From positions 1 to 43,997 of the IMG/VR virus record IMGVR_UViG_2778261068_000003: DNA of 43,997 bases. One strand, 5' to 3'. This DNA is from a virus. Taxonomy: Duplodnaviria; Heunggongvirae; Uroviricota; Caudoviricetes. Position 1 is the first letter of the stretch. Every line of letters starts with the position of its first letter. The translations under genes were made by a program, and so were the position numbers. The notes under the pieces were generated by a model that saw only the letters and a list, made by a program, of their open reading frames with translations, was not told where the DNA came from and searched no databases. Positions 2,504 through 15,843 of this stretch are shown here, in pieces.

Positions 2504-4963
2504 TTAAAAATCAGCCTGACTCGGGAGCAGTTTTTGCCAGATAGCTGAAACGTATTTTGCCTGGTAACGGGCGTCATCAAGTGCATTGTGGCGCTCGCCT
2601 TCGAATGGAATAGCCGTTCTGGCATCGAAGTCCATGGCTCCTCCCAGTTCAACGATCGTGCGAACATCGCGATCATTGCAGTAGTGCCACGGGCAGGGGA
2701 TTCCCTGTCGTTCGTATGAACGGCGTAAAATTACGTTGTCGAAACTGGTTCCGTTGCTCCAGACCTGAACAAAAAACTCACCAGAGTTTTCGTCGATAAA
2801 TTCCCGTAATTGCAACAGTGCATCATCTAACGGGATTTCATCAGCCAGAATGGCAGACTGCGCTTCGCGCGATTGCTTCAGCCACCACTTAACGGTGTCC
2901 CTGTCAATGACACCGCCAGCAGTATCCAGATCGATGGTCTTACTGAATTCTGGCCCAATATTTCCGGTTTGCGGATCGAAAAATATTGCACCTATTGAGA
3001 TAACTGCAGCATCAGGATTTTTTCCCATGGTTTCCAGGTCGATCATCATATGAGTCCACATTCTGTTACTGGTGGATATGTATTTATGATGACCGTTCGC
3101 CGGAATTAGGGGATTTGCCGTCTCGCCAGTTTCATCACTGCTATTGCCATGCTGAGCGTCACCAGCGCTCTCCTTATGAGAATTCTCAGTGCTTTCCATT
3201 TTCTCCGAATCTTTTTCAGCCAGATTTTCTTCATCGAATGTTTCCTGATATGTTGTGTTACCCATAACAGGCCCGCAGTCCGGACATTTTCCACCGCCAG
3301 CCCGGCTGCAAGTATTGCAGCTTTTTTCAGTCCCCTGTTGTGCTGTTGGCTCTGACTGTTGCACTTCTGGCCCATTTTGTTGCGCATCCGGACTGTTTTG
3401 TTCCGCTTTCTGGTCGTTCTGTTCCGTTTCTTGCTGATTCTGGTACAGAGAATCGCGAGTCTGGATCCCCTCAACCCACTTCGGATCATTCGGGTCGCTA
3501 ATTCCTTCAACAAATTCACCACGTGATGCAGCAAGCACTTTGTCGGCATCAGGCAGATTTTCTGTCTCCATTTTTTTATTTGTTTCGACCGTGTTAACTT
3601 TTACCGGCTCTGGTTGTTCAGAGTTTTGTGCGACACTGGTATTTTGCGGTAAGCCTGTGTATGTGCCATTTTTTCGGGCGACATATTCTTCTTTGGTGAT
3701 TTCAGTAGCCCCGGCAGCCAGCGCCTTATTCAGACCAGACAGTTTGTTTGCGCGACCGTATTTTTCGCCGTCCTTATCGGTAAAGAGGAAGTAGAACGGT
3801 CCTTCACGCTCTACAGATGGTTCAGCTTCCAGTGCGCTTTCATTTTTTTGGGTGCCAGATACTTCTGTTTCCACTGCATCAGTTTGTGTTGCTGACGACC
3901 GGAGAACATCAGCAGGACTCTGATCCGTTTCTTCATCTTCAAACACGCCTTTTGTCGTCAGGTATTCAGTAATGTATTTGTTCAGTGCCACAGGGTCTTT
4001 GTGAATGTCGATCGGACGTTCACGGACAAGGCCAAAAATAGTCTGGCGGCTGTAGCGAAGCGCATCAGGCTGTTTGCGCATTGATGCGGAGATGCGCTTC
4101 CAGTCTTCGCGATCTTTGTCGATAACTTCATTTTTTGCCCAGCGATGGATGCTGCCGTCAATGTTTCCGGCATCAATATCGCCAGGCCAGAGAGCGTAGG
4201 CCAGTTCTTCATCCAGCGTTTTCCATGTCTGCCTGTATTCGCGACGAATGGCGGCAGTGACTGGGTTGATTTTTGCTACTGAGTTTTCAGTGTTCTGCCG
4301 GTTAACTTTGGCGCGGGCGAGATCAACAACAGAAGTATATGCTCCACCTTCTTTGCGCTCCTTTTCCATGCGTTTTTTACGTTCGAGAAAATACGCCTGA
4401 ATGTCGGGCCATTTGGCTGTTGGTTTTAAATCACGTCTGGCATCGTTGATGTACTCAGTCTGACGCTCAGGATACATGGCGTTAATTTCTTTAGTCCTGA
4501 TAATTGCTTCAGTGAGGTGTCCATCAAAAGTCGTCATCTCGTCATCGCCGAGAAGCCCGCTTGCATTGATGACCATATCCACGGTGATGTTTTCATGTGT
4601 ACCGAACCTGACAAGGACAGCAGCCCGCTTGTCTTCAGATAACTGATTAAAGTTAACAGTTTCTGTATCCGGTTCAGGGTCGACCGGAACAAAGGAAGCC
4701 GACTCCTCATTCCAGCGGTTTTCCTGCATATATTCGGAATCCCAGGAATCGAGAGCAGGGCGGGCCATGCCGGGTTTATCCTCGCAGACAAGAAATTTAT
4801 AAGCACAGTCCTGAGCTTCCGGGTATTGTTCCAGAAATAACCAGCTAAATTTGGCTCTTGCCCGGCGTTCGTCGCCTGCTTCAATGGCAGTGGCCACAGG
4901 TCTGGCGCCTTCTGCTGTTGCCTGTTCGTCCGGAATGGCGGCGCAAATAAAGACTTTACTCAT
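2504..4963 (-). CDS. large phage exonuclease-domain protein (C-terminal DnaQ/DEDD-like 3'-5' exonuclease fold)
   Basis: 819 aa; C-terminal MIDLETMG...SNGTSFDNVIL...HNALDDA resembles DEDDh exonuclease motifs; central CxxC...CPDC zinc-ribbon-like motif and a Q/E-rich low-complexity segment; sits at the exo/recombination position. Confidence 0.7.
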   Translation of the reverse strand: MSKVFICAAIPDEQATAEGARPVATAIEAGDERRARAKFSWLFLEQYPEAQDCAYKFLVCEDKPGMARPALDSWDSEYMQENRWNEESASFVPVDPEPDTETVNFNQLSEDKRAAVLVRFGTHENITVDMVINASGLLGDDEMTTFDGHLTEAIIRTKEINAMYPERQTEYINDARRDLKPTAKWPDIQAYFLERKKRMEKERKEGGAYTSVVDLARAKVNRQNTENSVAKINPVTAAIRREYRQTWKTLDEELAYALWPGDIDAGNIDGSIHRWAKNEVIDKDREDWKRISASMRKQPDALRYSRQTIFGLVRERPIDIHKDPVALNKYITEYLTTKGVFEDEETDQSPADVLRSSATQTDAVETEVSGTQKNESALEAEPSVEREGPFYFLFTDKDGEKYGRANKLSGLNKALAAGATEITKEEYVARKNGTYTGLPQNTSVAQNSEQPEPVKVNTVETNKKMETENLPDADKVLAASRGEFVEGISDPNDPKWVEGIQTRDSLYQNQQETEQNDQKAEQNSPDAQQNGPEVQQSEPTAQQGTEKSCNTCSRAGGGKCPDCGPVMGNTTYQETFDEENLAEKDSEKMESTENSHKESAGDAQHGNSSDETGETANPLIPANGHHKYISTSNRMWTHMMIDLETMGKNPDAAVISIGAIFFDPQTGNIGPEFSKTIDLDTAGGVIDRDTVKWWLKQSREAQSAILADEIPLDDALLQLREFIDENSGEFFVQVWSNGTSFDNVILRRSYERQGIPCPWHYCNDRDVRTIVELGGAMDFDARTAIPFEGERHNALDDARYQAKYVSAIWQKLLPSQADF

Positions 4964-6594: not shown

Positions 6595-7002
6595 TTATTG
6601 ATGTTTGTTACGTTTGCGAGCTTCTAGTAGCTCGGTGAATAGGCGATTAAAATTCTCAACGCGGGCACGGAGTTCGCTGATTTGTGCTTGCTGCTCTGAT
6701 TTTGGAAGTGCGCGATACAATCGCAACATCTCCAACTCATCTTCCGATAAGTCTAAGGCGCTGTTGAGTGCAACTGGTGGATCTGGTGTTTTATCCTCGT
6801 CACCAAACAGTATCCAAGTTGGTGAACATTGCAATACCTCAGCCAGGCGATGCAAATTTTGCCCACGCGGGGCTGTATGGTCGCTTTCCCATAGTGAAAT
6901 TGATGAGCCAGATACGCCAGCAGCTTTGCTTAAATCGTTTTGACTTAAACCAACCTGTTTGCGTCTTTCTCTAATTCGTTGACCTAAAGTTTTCTCGTTC
7001 AT
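6595..7002 (-). CDS. DicA-like HTH (XRE family) prophage repressor
   Basis: ...LGQRIRERRKQVGLSQNDLSKAAGVSGSSISLWE...LQCSPTWILFGDEDK... closely resembles E. coli DicA; start placed at MNEKTL (7002) because the longer ORF start at 7053 would overlap the operator. Confidence 0.85.
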   Translation of the reverse strand: MNEKTLGQRIRERRKQVGLSQNDLSKAAGVSGSSISLWESDHTAPRGQNLHRLAEVLQCSPTWILFGDEDKTPDPPVALNSALDLSEDELEMLRLYRALPKSEQQAQISELRARVENFNRLFTELLEARKRNKHQ

Positions 7003-7024
7003 ATTTAGATATCTTAATAACCCT

Positions 7025-10301: not shown

Positions 10302-10718
10302 ATGGGAAACGTTTTTACACCTGAATACAGGGAACAACTGAAGGCGCGTATTGTGGAACTGGTACGCAGAGACGGGAGGAAAACGCGTAAGCAACTGGAA
10401 GATGAAACCGGAGCTACCAGACACCTGATAGAAGTTCTGGCGAAAGAGCTGGTGGTCAGTGGTGCAGTATATGGTTCGGGGCATGGGATATTTCCTTCGG
10501 AGCAGGCGCGTAAGGACTGGATAAAGGCCTGCAAAAAAATGTCGAAAGGTACAGCGAAAAAGAAGAGCGACCCCGACCTGATTTATTCATTGCCGGATGG
10601 TGAAATACGCCGTTACAACAGGCGACAGAACATAATCTGTCGCGAGTGCCGTCAGAGCGAAGCTATGCAGCGTGTGCTGGCTTTCTGGAGGGGCGATTTT
10701 CAGGAGGTGGTGGCGTGA
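10302..10718 (+). CDS. hypothetical phage protein
   Basis: Start at MGNVF with GAGG Shine-Dalgarno; C-terminal Cys/Arg-rich segment; function unknown. Confidence 0.5.
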   Translation: MGNVFTPEYREQLKARIVELVRRDGRKTRKQLEDETGATRHLIEVLAKELVVSGAVYGSGHGIFPSEQARKDWIKACKKMSKGTAKKKSDPDLIYSLPDGEIRRYNRRQNIICRECRQSEAMQRVLAFWRGDFQEVVA

Positions 10719-11020
10719 GGGTGAGAGTTTATATTGCCGGTCCAATGACCGGGTATAAAAATTTCAACCGTGAGGCGTTCCACAAGGCGGAAGAGGAACT
10801 GAAACGGGAAGGGCATACAGTCTTAAACCCGGCAGTACTTCCTGACGGGCTGACACAGCCACACTACATGGATATTTGCATGGCAATGATTCGTTGTGTG
10901 GATGCGATTTACATGCTGAAAGGCTGGCAGCGGTCAGCAGGCGCTAAGGCAGAACTGGCGCTGGCGGGGAAACTGGGGCATGCAGTTATTTTCCAAGAGG
11001 CAAACAGTGAGCAAGATTGA
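10715..11020 (+). CDS. DUF4406-like (nucleoside 2-deoxyribosyltransferase-like fold) protein
   Basis: VYIAGPMTGYKNFNREAFHKAEEELKREGHTVLNP... is characteristic of the family; GTG start overlapping the upstream stop, with GGAGG 7 nt upstream. Confidence 0.55.
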   Translation: MRVRVYIAGPMTGYKNFNREAFHKAEEELKREGHTVLNPAVLPDGLTQPHYMDICMAMIRCVDAIYMLKGWQRSAGAKAELALAGKLGHAVIFQEANSEQD

Positions 11021-11207
11021 CTACCAGGAATTGATAGCGACACTGTGACGCTTAAGGAGGCGACTGATGCGCTACTGCACTGTGCGGAACAGCTTCGCGC
11101 TCCAGAATAATTAAATTTAGCACTGTAAATAAAATTAAATCCTTAACAGGAGGGATTCCTGCACCCTCAAAACATCAGGAGGCCGCCCGAAAGGGCGGTA
11201 ATAAATA

Positions 11208-12038
11208 ATGCAAGAAATCAAAGAAAATATCAGACAACAGCTTTACGGGTTTTATATTGCTTATGATTTGTGGCTGAGTAATGGGGTGAAACCCGGCGGG
11301 GTGTTTTCTCAAAGTTATGGTTTATGCGCTAATCTTTTTGATTATCTCACACTAATTGGTGCCCCCAGCGAAGCGGTACTGGAACAATTACACACGGATT
11401 TCAGAAGTGCCGGGCTGAATGAGGTGTTGCCATTTAACGAGAGTAAAGGACATTACTATGAAGAAAAAGAGAACAATAAGTGCCATATGAATCCGGCGCG
11501 GGCGGCGTGGGTCAGGGCGCAGATGGTGCAGGCAGTGCCGGACGGACTGGTTAAGGCCGTACGCTTCTATGAACAGGTAAAGTGTGAGAATCCGCCAGCT
11601 GAAACCGGAGCATGGAAAGACGCTGTTGACTGGGTACTCAAAGAGGCCTGCCGCGCTGCCATGCTTCATAGTGCCGAACCTGTAAGCCAGGCTTTAAGTG
11701 GCGAGAAGATGAAAAAGAAAGATCGCGATGCTGATTTGCGCTGGATTCATGGCGTAATAGTTCAGGCTGCGTGGTTTGTAAAAGCATCACTGGAGCAGAC
11801 CGCGCTATCGGGCACTCCTCCGGTAACTCAGGATGGTTGGATAAGCTGTAGTGAGCGAATGCCAAATGATGGTCAGCACGTAATTATTTTATGTGATGGC
11901 GCATTCGTTCTTTATGCGCAATATCGGGACGGTGAGTTTTTTGATATTGTCCGCAATGGTGAGGAGTTCTTCGAAACACAGAGCCGCAATGTAACCCACT
12001 GGATGCCACTACCAGAACCGCCGGAGATGAATCGATGA
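11208..12038 (+). CDS. hypothetical protein with C-terminal DUF551-like domain
   Basis: C-terminal ...WISCSERMPNDGQHVIILCDG...VTHWMPLPEPP resembles DUF551, common in lambdoid ninR regions. Confidence 0.55.
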   Translation: MQEIKENIRQQLYGFYIAYDLWLSNGVKPGGVFSQSYGLCANLFDYLTLIGAPSEAVLEQLHTDFRSAGLNEVLPFNESKGHYYEEKENNKCHMNPARAAWVRAQMVQAVPDGLVKAVRFYEQVKCENPPAETGAWKDAVDWVLKEACRAAMLHSAEPVSQALSGEKMKKKDRDADLRWIHGVIVQAAWFVKASLEQTALSGTPPVTQDGWISCSERMPNDGQHVIILCDGAFVLYAQYRDGEFFDIVRNGEEFFETQSRNVTHWMPLPEPPEMNR

Positions 12039-12118
12039 CCTGGCCTGAGGCATTCGCAACAGTAGGTATTGCACTGGCGGTGGCGCTGGTGGTGTATTCG
12101 ATTTGCCGCTGGGGATAA
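12035..12118 (+). CDS. putative small hydrophobic peptide (27 aa)
   Basis: MTWPEAFATVGIALAVALVVYSICRWG; ATG overlaps the upstream TGA (ATGA coupling); single predicted transmembrane helix; below the ORF-track length cutoff. Confidence 0.3.
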   Translation: MTWPEAFATVGIALAVALVVYSICRWG

Positions 12119-12306
12119 AAACGATTTGCGGGAAAAGGACAGTTAAGTAAAATCGCTGCGGGTGCTTGAGGCTATCTGTCTCAGGCATGAACACCAACGG
12201 CAGATAGATAAAAGCCCCACCCGACTATAAATCGAAGTGAGGCCCCTATATGCTCGACACATATAGATTGCCTCTTACGGACCGAAAGGTCAAGGAGAAG
12301 CAGGCT

Positions 12307-12462
12307 ATGAAGCAGCAAAAGGCGATGTTAATCGCCCTGATCGTCATCTGTATTACCGTCGTAGTGACGGCACTGGTAACGAGGAAAGATCTCTGCGAGG
12401 TACGAATCCGTACCGGACAGACGGAGGTCGCTGTCTTCACAGCTTACGAATCTGAGGAGTAA
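12307..12462 (+). CDS. hok: Hok/Gef-family type I toxin
   Basis: MKQQKAMLIALIVICITVVVTALVTRKDLCEVRIRTGQTEVAVFTAYESEE matches the Hok family pattern; AAGGAG Shine-Dalgarno; an in-frame upstream extension (12250) is mok-like; stem-loop directly after the stop. Confidence 0.85.
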   Translation: MKQQKAMLIALIVICITVVVTALVTRKDLCEVRIRTGQTEVAVFTAYESEE

Positions 12463-12532
12463 GAGACCAGGCGGGAGATTACTCTCCCGCCTCCTCTGAT
12501 GTGTCAGGCATCCTCAACGCGCCCGCACCTAA

Positions 12533-12553
12533 CCCGCTTCGGCGGGTTTTTTG
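12533..12553 (+). terminator. Rho-independent terminator of the hok transcript
   Basis: CCCGCTTCGGCGGG hairpin followed by TTTTTT. Confidence 0.7.
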
Positions 12554-12734
12554 TTGTTTATTTTTAGTGGGTTTGATCTTTTTGATTGCGTCATCACGTT
12601 TGCCTGTAAAGGCATCGCGGATGTATTGAACAGATAATGAGCCAACATAGAATCAAAAATTCTTAAGTAGCGCGCAGGGAGAAGATGGATGGATCCCGAA
12701 GGGGAAGATCTATTTATCTGGAAGGATTCTGAAG

Positions 12735-12995
12735 ATGAAAATCGAAGAATTGCGTGAAATTTTTAGTGAAGATGGCCTCTATACTGTGTGCGTTGAGAAT
12801 GGCTCTATTGTCAGCCACTGCCGTATTAAATGTTTACAGTTTCAACAAAGGAAGAGTGGGGCTGCGTTAATTTACTTTGTGGATGGGCTTGTGACAGATG
12901 GTTTTATTTTGCGTGAAAATGAATTTGTCACATCATTGCAGTCTCTGAAAGAAGCTGGGCTTAAGGCTGGTTTTTCTGCTTTTGAAGATGAGTGA
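12735..12995 (+). CDS. hypothetical protein (86 aa)
   Basis: ORF with GAAGGA Shine-Dalgarno; no motif recognised. Confidence 0.45.
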   Translation: MKIEELREIFSEDGLYTVCVENGSIVSHCRIKCLQFQQRKSGAALIYFVDGLVTDGFILRENEFVTSLQSLKEAGLKAGFSAFEDE

Positions 12996-13061
12996 ATTCA
13001 TCTACAATTCAGCACAGGGCTGAACCCCTGTTGAGTAACACTGTGCCACCGGAGAAAGCCG

Positions 13062-13340
13062 ATGGCGCAAAATCCCAGATCACACAATTCTGATAATTCA
13101 GCCGCCTTTGCCAGCAGGCACGGGCGGCGTTCTCATGCATTCAAATCTGACTGGTTCCAGTACGACCCATGCACTGAAGAACAGGCCGAATGGCTGATTC
13201 AGAACTACCGCAGACGTGGGTATGAGTTTAGGAAAGCCCTCAGCCTCGATTATCGTCACTGGATAATCTACGTCAGGCTCCCTTACTTCGAACGGCCACC
13301 GCGTCCGTCCCGCACATTCCAGCAACGGATTTGGAGGTAA
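13062..13340 (+). CDS. hypothetical protein (92 aa)
   Basis: ORF with GGAGAAA Shine-Dalgarno; stop abuts the start of the downstream DUF968-like gene. Confidence 0.45.
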   Translation: MAQNPRSHNSDNSAAFASRHGRRSHAFKSDWFQYDPCTEEQAEWLIQNYRRRGYEFRKALSLDYRHWIIYVRLPYFERPPRPSRTFQQRIWR

Positions 13341-13341
13341 C

Positions 13342-14391
13342 GTGCGGGTATTACTTCGACCTGTTTTGGTACCGGAGCTCGGGCTGGTGGTCCTTAAGCC
13401 TGGCCGTGAATCCATGCAGGTATTTCATAACCCTCGAGTGTTGGTGGAACCGGAACCAAAAAGCATGCGCGGTCTGCCGTCCGGAGTCATTCCTGCCGTT
13501 CGCCAGCCGCTGGCAGAAGATAAATCATTACTGCCATTTTTCAGCGATGAGCGGGCGATTCGTGCTGCTGGCGGCGCTGGCGCATTGTCTGACTGGCTCC
13601 TGCGTCATGTTAAATCCTGCCAGTGGCCTCATGGTGACTATCACCACAGCGAAACCGTCATACATCGTTACGGTACCGGCGCGATGGTGTTGTGCTGGCA
13701 CTGTGACAACCAGCTGCGCGACCAGACTTCAGAATCACTCGGGCAACTTGCTCAACAAAACCTGACAGCCTGGATGATTGACGTCATCCGCCACGCAATA
13801 AACGGTATACAGGAGCGGGAGTTATCGCTGGCTGAATTATCCTGGTGGGCGGTCTGCAATCAGGTAGCGGACGCGCTACCGGAGGCAGTATTACGTCGTT
13901 CTCTGGGGTTACGTGCGGAAAAAATCCGCTCGGTGTACCGCGAAAGCGACATCATACCGGGAGAGCAGACAGCCACCAGCATACTGAAGCAGCGCACAAA
14001 AAATCTTGCGCCGCTGCCTCATGCCCACCAGCAACAAATCCCGCCACGGGAAAAGACGGTGGTAAGCATTGCCGTTGATCCGGAGTCTCCTGAATCTTTC
14101 ATGAAGCGACCTAAACGTCGCCGTTGGGTAAATGAGAAATACACGCGCTGGGTAAAGACACAGCCGTGCGCGTGTTGTGGTAAGCCAGCCGACGATCCCC
14201 ATCACCTGATTGGTCATGGTCAGGGCGGAATGGGAACAAAATCACACGATATTTTCACGCTACCGTTGTGTCGGGAGCATCACAACGAGCTTCATGCGGA
14301 TCCACTGGCGTTCGAAGAAAAGTATGGTCCCCAGGTTGGTTTAATTTTTCGTTTTCTTGATCACGCCTTTGCAACCGGCGTGCTCGGGTAA
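13342..14391 (+). CDS. DUF968-like protein with C-terminal HNH-like Cys/His motif
   Basis: GTG start 6 nt after GGAGGT; C-terminal ...CACCGKPADDPHHLIGHGQGG...LPLCREHHNELHADP...; sits at the NinG-like position upstream of rusA. Confidence 0.65.
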   Translation: MRVLLRPVLVPELGLVVLKPGRESMQVFHNPRVLVEPEPKSMRGLPSGVIPAVRQPLAEDKSLLPFFSDERAIRAAGGAGALSDWLLRHVKSCQWPHGDYHHSETVIHRYGTGAMVLCWHCDNQLRDQTSESLGQLAQQNLTAWMIDVIRHAINGIQERELSLAELSWWAVCNQVADALPEAVLRRSLGLRAEKIRSVYRESDIIPGEQTATSILKQRTKNLAPLPHAHQQQIPPREKTVVSIAVDPESPESFMKRPKRRRWVNEKYTRWVKTQPCACCGKPADDPHHLIGHGQGGMGTKSHDIFTLPLCREHHNELHADPLAFEEKYGPQVGLIFRFLDHAFATGVLG

Positions 14392-14403: not shown

Positions 14404-14763
14404 ATGCGTATAGAATTTGTTTTGCCTTACCCGCCGTCGGTGAACACCTACTGGCGCCGTCGTGGTGGCGTATATTTTGTATCAAAAGCCGGTGAGCGTT
14501 ATCGTCGGGATGTGGCGTTTATTGTTCGCCAGCAGCAACTGAAATTAAACCTGTCCGGTAGATTGGCAATCAGGATTATTGCAGAGCCACCGGATAAGCG
14601 CCGTCGTGATCTGGACAATATTCTGAAAGCGTCGCTGGATGCGCTGACGCATGCCGGACTGCTCATAGACGATGAGCAGTTTGATGAAATTAATATTGTG
14701 CGCGGTCAGCCCGTTTCTGGTGGGCGACTGGGGATAAAAATCACACAGCTGGGGTGTGCATGA
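14404..14763 (+). CDS. rusA: RusA-family Holliday junction resolvase
   Basis: MRIEFVLPYPPSVNTYWRRRGG...DLDNILKASLDALTHAGLLIDDEQ... is typical of RusA. Confidence 0.9.
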   Translation: MRIEFVLPYPPSVNTYWRRRGGVYFVSKAGERYRRDVAFIVRQQQLKLNLSGRLAIRIIAEPPDKRRRDLDNILKASLDALTHAGLLIDDEQFDEINIVRGQPVSGGRLGIKITQLGCA

Positions 14764-15461: not shown

Positions 15462-15511
15462 TCATGCAAATCTGATATCTTGCCGATTTTGTATGTGATG
15501 GCAAAGTGACC

Positions 15512-15540
15512 AAACCCGCTACTGGCGGGTTTTTTGCGCC
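15512..15540 (+). terminator. tR'-like Rho-independent terminator
   Basis: AAACCCGCTACTGGCGGGTTTTTT hairpin with T-run, a short distance downstream of the putative late promoter. Confidence 0.65.
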
Positions 15541-15632
15541 CGAAAAGTGGCACAGGACGTTAAATGCGCTGGTGGTTGCGAATACTGGTCTTTCAGCTTG
15601 CTGGCCTTTTATCCCTGTGAAAACCGGCGGAT

Positions 15633-15843
15633 ATGTTGCGTCAGATAATAGAGGCCAGCAGCCGTCCGGGTGATTTGGTTGCCGACTTTTTTATGGGGTC
15701 AGGCTCCACGATAAAAGCCGCACTTTCACTGGGGGCGTCGTGCAATTGGTGTTGAGCTTGAGGCCGAACGGTTTGAGCAGACGGTGAGGGAAGTGTGTGA
15801 GGTAAACATTCCTGGCCAGTTAGCAGGATTACTTAATCAATAA
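15633..15843 (+). pseudogene. frameshifted 3' remnant of a DNA methyltransferase
   Basis: ...GDLVADFFMGSGSTIKAALSLG... (DPFxGSGTT-like motif) runs into a stop; the adjacent frame continues ...IGVELEAERFEQTVREV... (the IGxE motif); no 5' part of the gene is present. Confidence 0.5.

Follow-up and report, generated by a model that had tools for sequence, protein, structure and literature searches.

Two described loci stand closest to the DNA segment treated here. In phage lambda, the nin region runs from ren through ninB/orf and ninG/rap to Q, and in the Qin prophage of Escherichia coli K-12, as in the related Rac, PPompW and Stx prophages, the order is hokD-rem-(an unannotated open reading frame, here called orf92)-ydfU-ydfT(Q). 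In the present study, we analysed positions 10302-14391 of IMG/VR record IMGVR_UViG_2778261068_000003 (Caudoviricetes), the whole 43,997-nucleotide stretch of which is called the window below. The segment holds a block of six open reading frames (ORFs) between the replication genes and rusA, together with a hok locus. Its gene order and orientation were the same as in K-12 Qin and its relatives, and the likeness to Qin extended to Rem (74% identity), YdfU (87%), the DicA-type repressor (56%), a homologue of orf92 and hok/sok. The two loci differed at two points: the window keeps rusA between ydfU and Q, and the place 5' of hok, which is occupied by relBE in Qin, is taken in the window by genes for a DUF977, a DUF4406 and a DUF551 protein. 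Like the lambda nin region, the block lies between the replication genes and Q, begins with a Ren-like gene, has near Q a nuclease that is structure-specific or of the HNH type, and includes a terminator. Unlike the window, lambda is without hok/sok, Rem and DUF4406, and its NinG and NinB are unlike YdfU in sequence.

As a whole, the block is best explained, with moderate confidence, as the early-right accessory ('nin-equivalent') region of a Rac/Qin-type lambdoid prophage, in which the DUF4406 protein would be a 2'-deoxynucleoside 5'-monophosphate (dNMP) N-glycosidase and YdfU a DNA-processing nuclease. It is an ordinary prophage segment that is already known, not a new cargo block. The six ORFs are as follows.

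10302-10718, plus strand: DUF977 winged-helix protein, Ren-like (Pfam DUF977, E 1.7e-27; PHROG 142, 'Ren-like exclusion protein', 5e-39)
10715-11020, plus strand: DUF4406 protein, 101 aa (Pfam DUF4406, PF14359, E 2.6e-37)
11208-12038, plus strand: mosaic 276-aa protein with a C-terminal DUF551 domain (Pfam DUF551, 3.4e-21, residues 210-273)
12735-12995, plus strand: rem, 86 aa, antirepressor of a DicA-type prophage repressor by its 74% identity to K-12 Rem (E 6e-44)
13062-13340, plus strand: orf92, conserved small protein (PHROG 1212, 2e-36, residues 27-92)
13342-14391, plus strand: ydfU, 349 aa, DUF968 protein with a C-terminal HNH (His-Me finger) nuclease domain (Pfam DUF968, E 5e-76; HNHc_6, weak)

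Identity and layout of the region

Close relatives of the block occurred in thousands of E. coli genomes. By megablast, 347 phage records and 5,151 of 5,426 complete E. coli genomes contained pieces of it. None of the complete genomes had at least 80% of the 4.6-kb query covered at one place, and the region is therefore mosaic. In annotated relatives, the backbone read YdaT-like, YdaU-like and DnaC-like replication genes, DUF1627, DUF977, a variable slot, hokD, rem, the 92-aa ORF, ydfU (DUF968), rusA and Q, a gene order common to E. coli prophages, PPompW, Stx phages and K-12 Qin. The location between the replication genes and Q agrees with the ninR-like placement given by the original prediction, an earlier reading of the same DNA. 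The block is not one unit, however: it consists of a conserved backbone cassette, hok-rem-orf92-ydfU-rusA-Q, and a variable slot that extends from DUF977 to hok. In relatives, the slot was occupied by Ea22-like proteins, Doc toxin, Paa/AdfO adhesin, ORF6N proteins and other DUF551 proteins; in the window, it holds the DUF4406 gene and the gene for the DUF551-tailed mosaic protein. All genes of the block are co-oriented on the plus strand with the early lytic operon, from the replication genes to Q, and this layout suggests that transcription would run rightward from the replication genes to Q.

All six predicted ORFs lie on the plus strand, and their coordinates proved exact. In alignments of homologous DNA, the variable columns were counted at codon positions 1, 2 and 3. 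The counts were 61/48/108 for DUF977, 22/18/70 for DUF4406, 20/16/42 for Rem and 67/46/189 for YdfU. For orf92, residues 27-92 gave 14/20/48, and the first 26 codons gave 11/9/11, with no bias. These results indicated that the six ORFs are real and vary in the manner of coding sequence, apart from the opening 26 codons of orf92; constraint on orf92 looks confined to its C-terminal 66 residues (27-92). NCBIfam returned zero matches for all six proteins, and none of the six matched a family of PADLOC-DB 2.0, which models defence rather than anti-defence, at E <= 0.01.

Fold and predicted activity of the DUF4406 protein

Close to the DUF4406 protein in fold and active-site residues are the (deoxy)nucleoside 5'-monophosphate N-glycosidases human and rat DNPH1 (Rcl), Streptomyces MilB and Clostridium BcmB, with which it shares the Tyr and the Ser-x-Gly-x-x-x-Glu residues. 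Previous studies have reported that Y24, D80 and E104 form the catalytic triad of DNPH1, that E104 forms a covalent deoxyribose-phosphate intermediate, and that the phosphate is held by S98 and by S128' of the partner subunit (PMC10603095). In MilB, Phe17 replaces the Tyr, so ribose is accepted, and both DNPH1 and MilB prefer 5-modified pyrimidine nucleotides (PMC10603095). A phage precedent is DmtZ of the Z-genome phages, a phage-encoded member of the same superfamily with a dNMP substrate, which hydrolyses dAMP and is described as a dAMP hydrolase / deoxyribose-5-phosphate transferase (PMC12884076). DmtZ differs from the DUF4406 protein in its length of about 145 aa and in its place beside dutZ/purZ in phages with 2-aminoadenine (Z) genomes, whereas the window is without sign of a modified-base pathway; the two proteins are likened by superfamily.

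The assignment to DUF4406 was clear, with a Pfam score of 127.5 bits against a cut-off of 22 and a match to profile positions 2-91 of 91, and the motif RVRVYIAGPMTG, which had led to the family being predicted, was present. The AlphaFold2 model, built from a 40-sequence alignment, had a predicted local distance difference test (pLDDT) score of 91.9. A Foldseek search of this model against the PDB matched nucleoside 2-deoxyribosyltransferase (NDT), MilB, BcmB and human DNPH1 with E values of 2e-5 to 1e-2 and a template modelling (TM) score of about 0.73. The 26 best PDB matches all belonged to one fold family (NDT, MilB, DNPH1 and the APC5043 structure), with TM (query) scores of 0.69-0.76. Y6, S74, G76 and E80 were invariant in 40 homologues. 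In a MAFFT alignment, Y6, S74 and E80 fell on Y24, S98 and E104 of DNPH1 and on Y7, D92 and E98 of Lactobacillus leichmannii NDT. In addition, more distant actinophage homologues of DUF4406 matched Pfam Nuc_deoxyrib_tr at about 2e-6, just under the Pfam cut-off. Collectively, the confident model supports a fold of the N-deoxyribosyltransferase superfamily (flavodoxin-like alpha/beta). The fold that had been predicted for this protein is thus borne out by both the model and the catalytic residues, so an action on nucleotides is plausible.

Based on these residues, we predict that the DUF4406 protein is a minimal, DNPH1-like 2'-deoxynucleoside 5'-monophosphate N-glycosidase that acts through Glu80. 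The counterpart of Tyr6 selects 2'-deoxyribose in DNPH1 and is Phe in MilB, and Tyr6 may do the same here. The counterpart of Ser74, Ser98 of DNPH1, binds the 5'-phosphate, and nucleoside transferases have Asp at this place. Tyr at position 6 and Ser instead of Asp at position 74 therefore indicate a 2'-deoxynucleoside 5'-monophosphate substrate. Glu80, within the S-x-G-x-x-x-E motif, would be the covalent nucleophile. The enzyme would cleave the N-glycosidic bond of a dNMP by way of a Glu80-deoxyribose-5-phosphate intermediate and release the base. Its role while the phage replicates might be to edit or sanitise the pool of dNMPs.

The same evidence bears on whether the protein is instead a true NDT that swaps bases between deoxynucleosides in salvage, as PHROG 355 (labelled 'nucleoside 2-deoxyribosyltransferase'; matched at E 2e-47) and many phage annotations name it. 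T. brucei NDT was the top Foldseek match, and transferase activity is known for some phage NDTs. The invariant Ser74, however, is the residue of the nucleotide hydrolase DNPH1, where nucleoside transferases have Asp; moreover, the C-terminal segment of the transferases is absent, and the window protein gave no match to Pfam Nuc_deoxyrib_tr. We therefore consider a true transferase rather unlikely.

Several observations weigh against the N-glycosidase prediction. The chain of the DUF4406 protein stops at residue 101, immediately behind the last strand, and DNPH1 and NDT are about 45-60 residues longer; relative to DNPH1, MilB and BcmB, it is about 45 residues shorter and is without the helical extension that gives Ser128'. 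Since the missing C-terminal segment is the source of Ser128' in DNPH1, phosphate binding and even catalysis may differ in DUF4406. In NDT, the C-terminal segment, with its C-terminal Tyr, completes the neighbouring active site. The general-acid Asp did not align cleanly: D53, which is nearly invariant, lay two alignment columns off D80 of DNPH1 (D72 of NDT), whereas the homologues of Pseudomonas phages and actinophages have an Asp exactly in the D80 column. There was no sequence-level match to the known N-glycosidases, PDB sequence searches with the single DUF4406 sequence and with its profile gave chance matches only, and hhalign of the DUF4406 alignment against the single DNPH1 sequence gave nothing meaningful. 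Sequence profiles thus reach no solved relative, and the link to NDT and DNPH1 rests on fold, motifs and the bridging actinophage homologues. The substrate itself is not deducible. The literature searched, as judged by titles and passing mentions, contained no functional study of DUF4406.

We then considered the family and its gene neighbours. By tblastn, DUF4406 was found in 527 of 50,697 phage records, and the family comprised 18,365 cluster representatives at E <= 1e-3. In the window, the well-supported GTG start of the gene overlaps the DUF977 stop (GTGA), with AGGAGG 8 nt 5' of the start, and the overlap suggests translational coupling between DUF977 and DUF4406. Among 80 close IMG/VR relatives, DUF977 and DUF4406 were both detected by tblastn in 55, and DUF4406 directly followed DUF977 in 54 of these. 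The gene 3' of DUF4406 varied among close relatives; the next-ORF scan caught spurious short ORFs and served only to show this variation. A second scan covered 80 loci from different species, with two ORFs on each side of DUF4406 searched against Pfam. The upstream neighbours were mostly phage replication proteins (DnaB, O, P and DnaC-like), DNA methyltransferase matches totalled 11 within two ORFs on either side, and DUF968 appeared twice downstream. A fixed partner gene was sought within these two ORFs on each side and none was found, which also tells against the predicted activity. In the Vibrio phage pVa-8 (locus L091, 2489-3780), the DUF4406 gene is followed directly, with an overlap, by a DUF968 (YdfU-like) gene.

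No recurrent fused domain was found in 50 long DUF4406 members. A recurrent MazG/pyrophosphohydrolase fusion, suggested by PHROG labels and phage annotations, was rejected: Reedo gp27 had DUF4406 alone, Mufasa gp55 had no second Pfam domain, and the 50 long members gave no recurrent one. All that is left of it is the dATP/dGTP pyrophosphohydrolase gene beside DUF4406 in two related Pseudomonas phages. Gp27 of the Arthrobacter phage Reedo (locus L006, 2504-2872) is annotated as 'MazG-like pyrophosphatase' and contains the DUF4406 domain only; this annotation and the matching label of PHROG 12019 are probably wrong.

The neighbouring genes could also be taken to mean that DUF4406 sanitises methylated deoxynucleotides, such as 5-methyl-dCMP and N6-methyl-dAMP, released from degraded methylated DNA, alongside phage DNA methyltransferases. 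In phage N15 (locus L007, 3001-4309), gene 57 (DUF4406) overlaps the cytosine methyltransferase gene 58, and in the Pseudomonas phages phi297 and Baskent_P6, a dATP/dGTP pyrophosphohydrolase gene lies directly 5' of DUF4406 and a methyltransferase gene two genes 5'. The 11 methyltransferase matches of the species-level scan and the preference of DNPH1 and MilB for 5-modified pyrimidine nucleotides (PMC10603095) point the same way. Methyltransferases are, however, common in phage early regions anyway, and the 11 matches stand without a background rate; most loci had no methyltransferase nearby, and the only methyltransferase trace noticed near the block in the window was a broken fragment at 15506-15755. 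This more specific role is accordingly judged highly unlikely.

A further explanation is that DUF4406 is a counter-defence enzyme. Its TIR/NDT-like site would destroy or sequester an immune signal or substrate derived from nucleotides, such as the ADP-ribose-derived signals of Thoeris, cyclic nucleotides or molecules related to NAD, or the enzyme would counter nucleotide-sensing or nucleotide-depleting defences. TIR domains are related to the NDT fold, and their structures appeared among the weaker Foldseek matches, at ranks 41-42. The gene lies in an early variable accessory slot, and such slots of phages often carry anti-defence genes; the family is also very large and mostly phage-borne. 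On the other hand, the conserved Tyr and Ser fit a 2'-deoxy 5'-monophosphate rather than NAD or cyclic signals, and the neighbours were replication genes, methyltransferases and nucleases, with known anti-defence genes not among them. PADLOC, with its restriction to defence models, gave no match, and the titles and passing mentions seen in the literature searched linked DUF4406 to no defence. We therefore hold a counter-defence function to be unlikely and favour a dNMP N-glycosidase that acts on the nucleotide pool.

Rem, YdfU and the Ren-like protein

The original prediction gave none of the six ORFs an assigned function. The 86-aa ORF is Rem, an antirepressor already described in the literature, so for it the statement was wrong; for YdfU and the Ren-like protein it went too far. 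The window Rem had no Pfam family and matched PHROG 340 at 8e-23, and its position corresponds to the K-12 order hokD-rem-ydfU. Expression of K-12 Rem derepresses the DicA-controlled dicBp 165-fold (PMC10448788), which identifies Rem as an antirepressor of a short, non-cleavable repressor of the DicA type. Such a repressor is present in the window: the DicA-like protein encoded at 6595-7005 on the minus strand (136 aa) shared 56% identity with K-12 DicA (135 aa; E 2e-51). The identity of the 86-aa ORF as Rem and the presence of the DicA-like repressor therefore make it part of the lysis/lysogeny switch. By sequence, the window Rem is expected to derepress a DicA-controlled promoter as K-12 Rem does; it would inactivate the repressor encoded at 6595-7005 and help to switch the prophage to lytic expression.

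The intergenic region between rem and orf92 (12996-13061, plus strand) was 92% conserved in five prophages. A LexA-box-like sequence at 13028-13043, CTGTTGAGTAACACTG, was considered and rejected: one core position is mismatched, K-12 Qin does not retain the site, and the window has many near-matches of this kind. Separately, at 868-1066 on the minus strand, Rfam identified isrK, a C4 antisense RNA and its a1/b1 targets, which presumably represent a P1/P7-type RNA module controlling an antirepressor operon. The window may thus hold a second antirepressor circuit besides Rem.

The next backbone gene, orf92, had no Pfam family, and a PDB sequence search with it gave nothing useful. A 92-aa homologue is intact and unannotated in the Qin prophage of K-12 MG1655, between rem and ydfU (locus L010, 6307-6585, minus strand). 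In annotated relatives, and wherever the related locus reached far enough, orf92 lay directly 5' of ydfU. The GTG start of ydfU, also well supported, follows the orf92 stop by 1 nt, and a GGAGG lies within the last codons of orf92. This overlap of signals suggests translational coupling between orf92 and ydfU, and perhaps a complex of their products. The conserved partner ORF of ydfU is therefore a gap in the K-12 annotation.

YdfU had 87% identity to K-12 YdfU. Previous studies have placed DUF968 in the His-Me finger (HNH) superfamily with YbcO (PDB 3g27) and have proposed a role in recombination or repair from its neighbours (RusA, Q) and from fusions to Erf, Rad52 and RusA (PMC5714182, PMC4118853). 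The DUF968 and weak HNHc_6 matches agree with the HNH-like cluster that had been pointed out in this protein, and with its Pfam match YdfU is assigned the beta-beta-alpha-metal fold of His-Me finger group 7. In its C-terminal domain, H287, H288, H314 and H318 were invariant in 41 sequences from Escherichia, Yersinia, Vibrio and others. The N-terminal part held another invariant cluster, C93, Q94, C118, W119, H120, D122 and N140 (residues 90-140; window 13342-13900), in a domain with pLDDT of 75-94 and no Pfam family, and this cluster resembles a second motif of the zinc-binding or degenerate HNH-like kind. YdfU thus differs from P1 Ref, other HNH nucleases and E. coli YbcO (PDB 3g27, DUF1364) by its much larger size and by the extra N-terminal Cys/His domain without a Pfam family. 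This second conserved domain beside the HNH domain is a modest point of interest.

The best reading of these data is that YdfU is an HNH metal-dependent nuclease that would act on phage DNA intermediates alongside RusA. Most likely, it would process recombination or replication intermediates of phage DNA, like lambda NinG/Rap and P1 Ref. Against this, sequence similarity between YdfU and lambda NinG or NinB was undetectable, and the recombination role is a proposal of the literature, not an experiment. The AlphaFold2 model of YdfU was of moderate quality (pLDDT 71), and Foldseek with this model returned nothing significant.

The first ORF, at 10302-10718, had been given no family and is here assigned to DUF977. 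Its C-terminus shared 39% identity over 38 aa with the C-terminus of lambda Ren (E 2e-7), and the gene, like ren, comes immediately after the replication genes. Through Ren, a counter-exclusion factor, lambda escapes Rex exclusion. A Ren-like function of the DUF977 protein is suggested by this position and by the match, and the confinement of the similarity to 38 residues speaks against it. A winged-helix fold has been assigned to DUF977 (PMC2686095); a PDB sequence search with the protein gave nothing useful.

These gene identities bear on whether the whole block forms an island for defence or superinfection exclusion that the prophage expresses to protect the lysogen. The Ren-like label of PHROG 142 and the variable slot between DUF977 and hok, with Doc toxins, ORF6N proteins and an adhesin in relatives, would suit such an island; hok/sok loci and Ren-like proteins are linked to exclusion phenomena. 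However, none of the six proteins had a PADLOC match, the genes are all co-oriented with the early lytic operon, Rem is regulatory, YdfU and RusA are DNA-processing proteins, and an autonomous promoter-gene-terminator unit is evident only for hok. An exclusion island is therefore the least probable of the readings weighed here, and highly improbable in its own right. Of the broader defence or counter-defence framing of the original prediction, what stood was the resemblance of the first ORF to lambda Ren. The rest did not: PADLOC was without a match, Rem has its place in the lysis/lysogeny switch, the domain of YdfU marks it as an HNH nuclease encoded just 5' of rusA, and no conserved defence-related neighbour of DUF4406 appeared in the 80 species-level loci. 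The framing thus finds no direct support and is upheld only in part, with a small probability left for DUF4406. That prediction had named confident homology to housekeeping proteins as what would speak against it; homology of this kind was found in two or three cases out of six, and not for DUF4406, the DUF551 protein or orf92.

Other features of the window and meaning of the locus

The remaining features of the slot and of the cassette are as follows.

12035-12118, plus strand: 27-aa hydrophobic ORF, MTWPEAFATVGIALAVALVVYSICRWG, read from the sequence; its ATG overlaps the DUF551 stop (ATGA)
12160-12309, plus strand: hok/sok regulatory RNA region (Rfam RF01794, sok, 105 bits, E 6e-23)
12250-12462, plus strand: mok/hok type I toxin reading frames (Pfam HOK_GEF, 2.3e-23)
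12531-12557, plus strand: intrinsic terminator 3' of hok, a 7-bp stem with 5 GC pairs followed by TTTTTGTTGTT
14404-14763, plus strand: rusA Holliday junction resolvase, 3' of ydfU (Pfam RusA, 8.6e-16; PHROG 34, 1.4e-53)

The second gene of the slot is a DUF551 protein, as had been predicted. Previous work has described DUF551 as a portable domain, which occurs in Ea22 variants, in YfdS and in a dATP/dGTP pyrophosphohydrolase (PMC10834534). The N-terminal part of the window protein matched several PHROGs of unknown function, and a PDB sequence search gave nothing useful. The gene was found in the slot of only 1 of the 80 close relatives. The DUF551 protein and orf92 are both without a functional clue, which weakens the explanation of the block as a whole. 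A 188-bp spacer (11020-11207, plus strand) separates DUF4406 from this gene. In it, a strong TAAGGAGG site precedes a mini-ORF of 15 codons, MRYCTVRNSFALQNN; an AT-rich stretch comes next and then, immediately 5' of the DUF551 gene, the GC hairpin GCCGCCCGAAAGGGCGGT. The spacer has the appearance of a scar left by recombination where two parts of the mosaic meet.

Downstream, tblastn matches to the 27-aa ORF occurred in roughly half of the 80 related loci, including loci with a different upstream gene. Its variable columns by codon position were 10/10/20, and it had no PHROG match. It is a conserved membrane ORF located 5' of hok. Of the hok/sok type I toxin-antitoxin system, both the toxin ORF and the sok RNA element are present; by our reading of the sequence, hok proper covers 12307-12462 and encodes 51 aa, and the locus is annotated as hokD in related E. 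coli genomes. The terminator 3' of hok could act as a nin-type terminator ahead of rem...Q.

Downstream of the RusA gene, Pfam identified antiterminator Q. Directly after Q, at 15506-15755 on the plus strand, two short overlapping ORFs carry fragments of an N4/N6 DNA methyltransferase (...DFFMGSGST... motif) and look like a broken methylase gene. Elsewhere in the window, at 2504-4963 on the minus strand, an 819-aa ORF begins with a long part that is acidic and of low complexity and has at its C-terminus a Rv2179c-like 3'-5' exoribonuclease/DEDD domain (7.5e-65).

In summary, the region as a whole matters little: prophages of this very common type carry such an early accessory segment as standard, and two of its 'unknown' genes are already named, one of them, Rem, with a function demonstrated in K-12. 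The DUF4406 protein has a wider bearing. An enzyme activity for it could annotate thousands of phage genes, N15 gp57 included. There is a slim chance that DUF4406 is a widespread, minimal, phage-specific nucleotide N-glycosidase acting in host-phage conflict, for example by destroying a nucleotide-derived immune signal or a defence-relevant (modified) dNMP. If this were true, DUF4406 would be an unrecognised anti-defence family of more than 18,000 sequence clusters, which temperate phages, among them N15 and Rac-type prophages, carry in their early operon.

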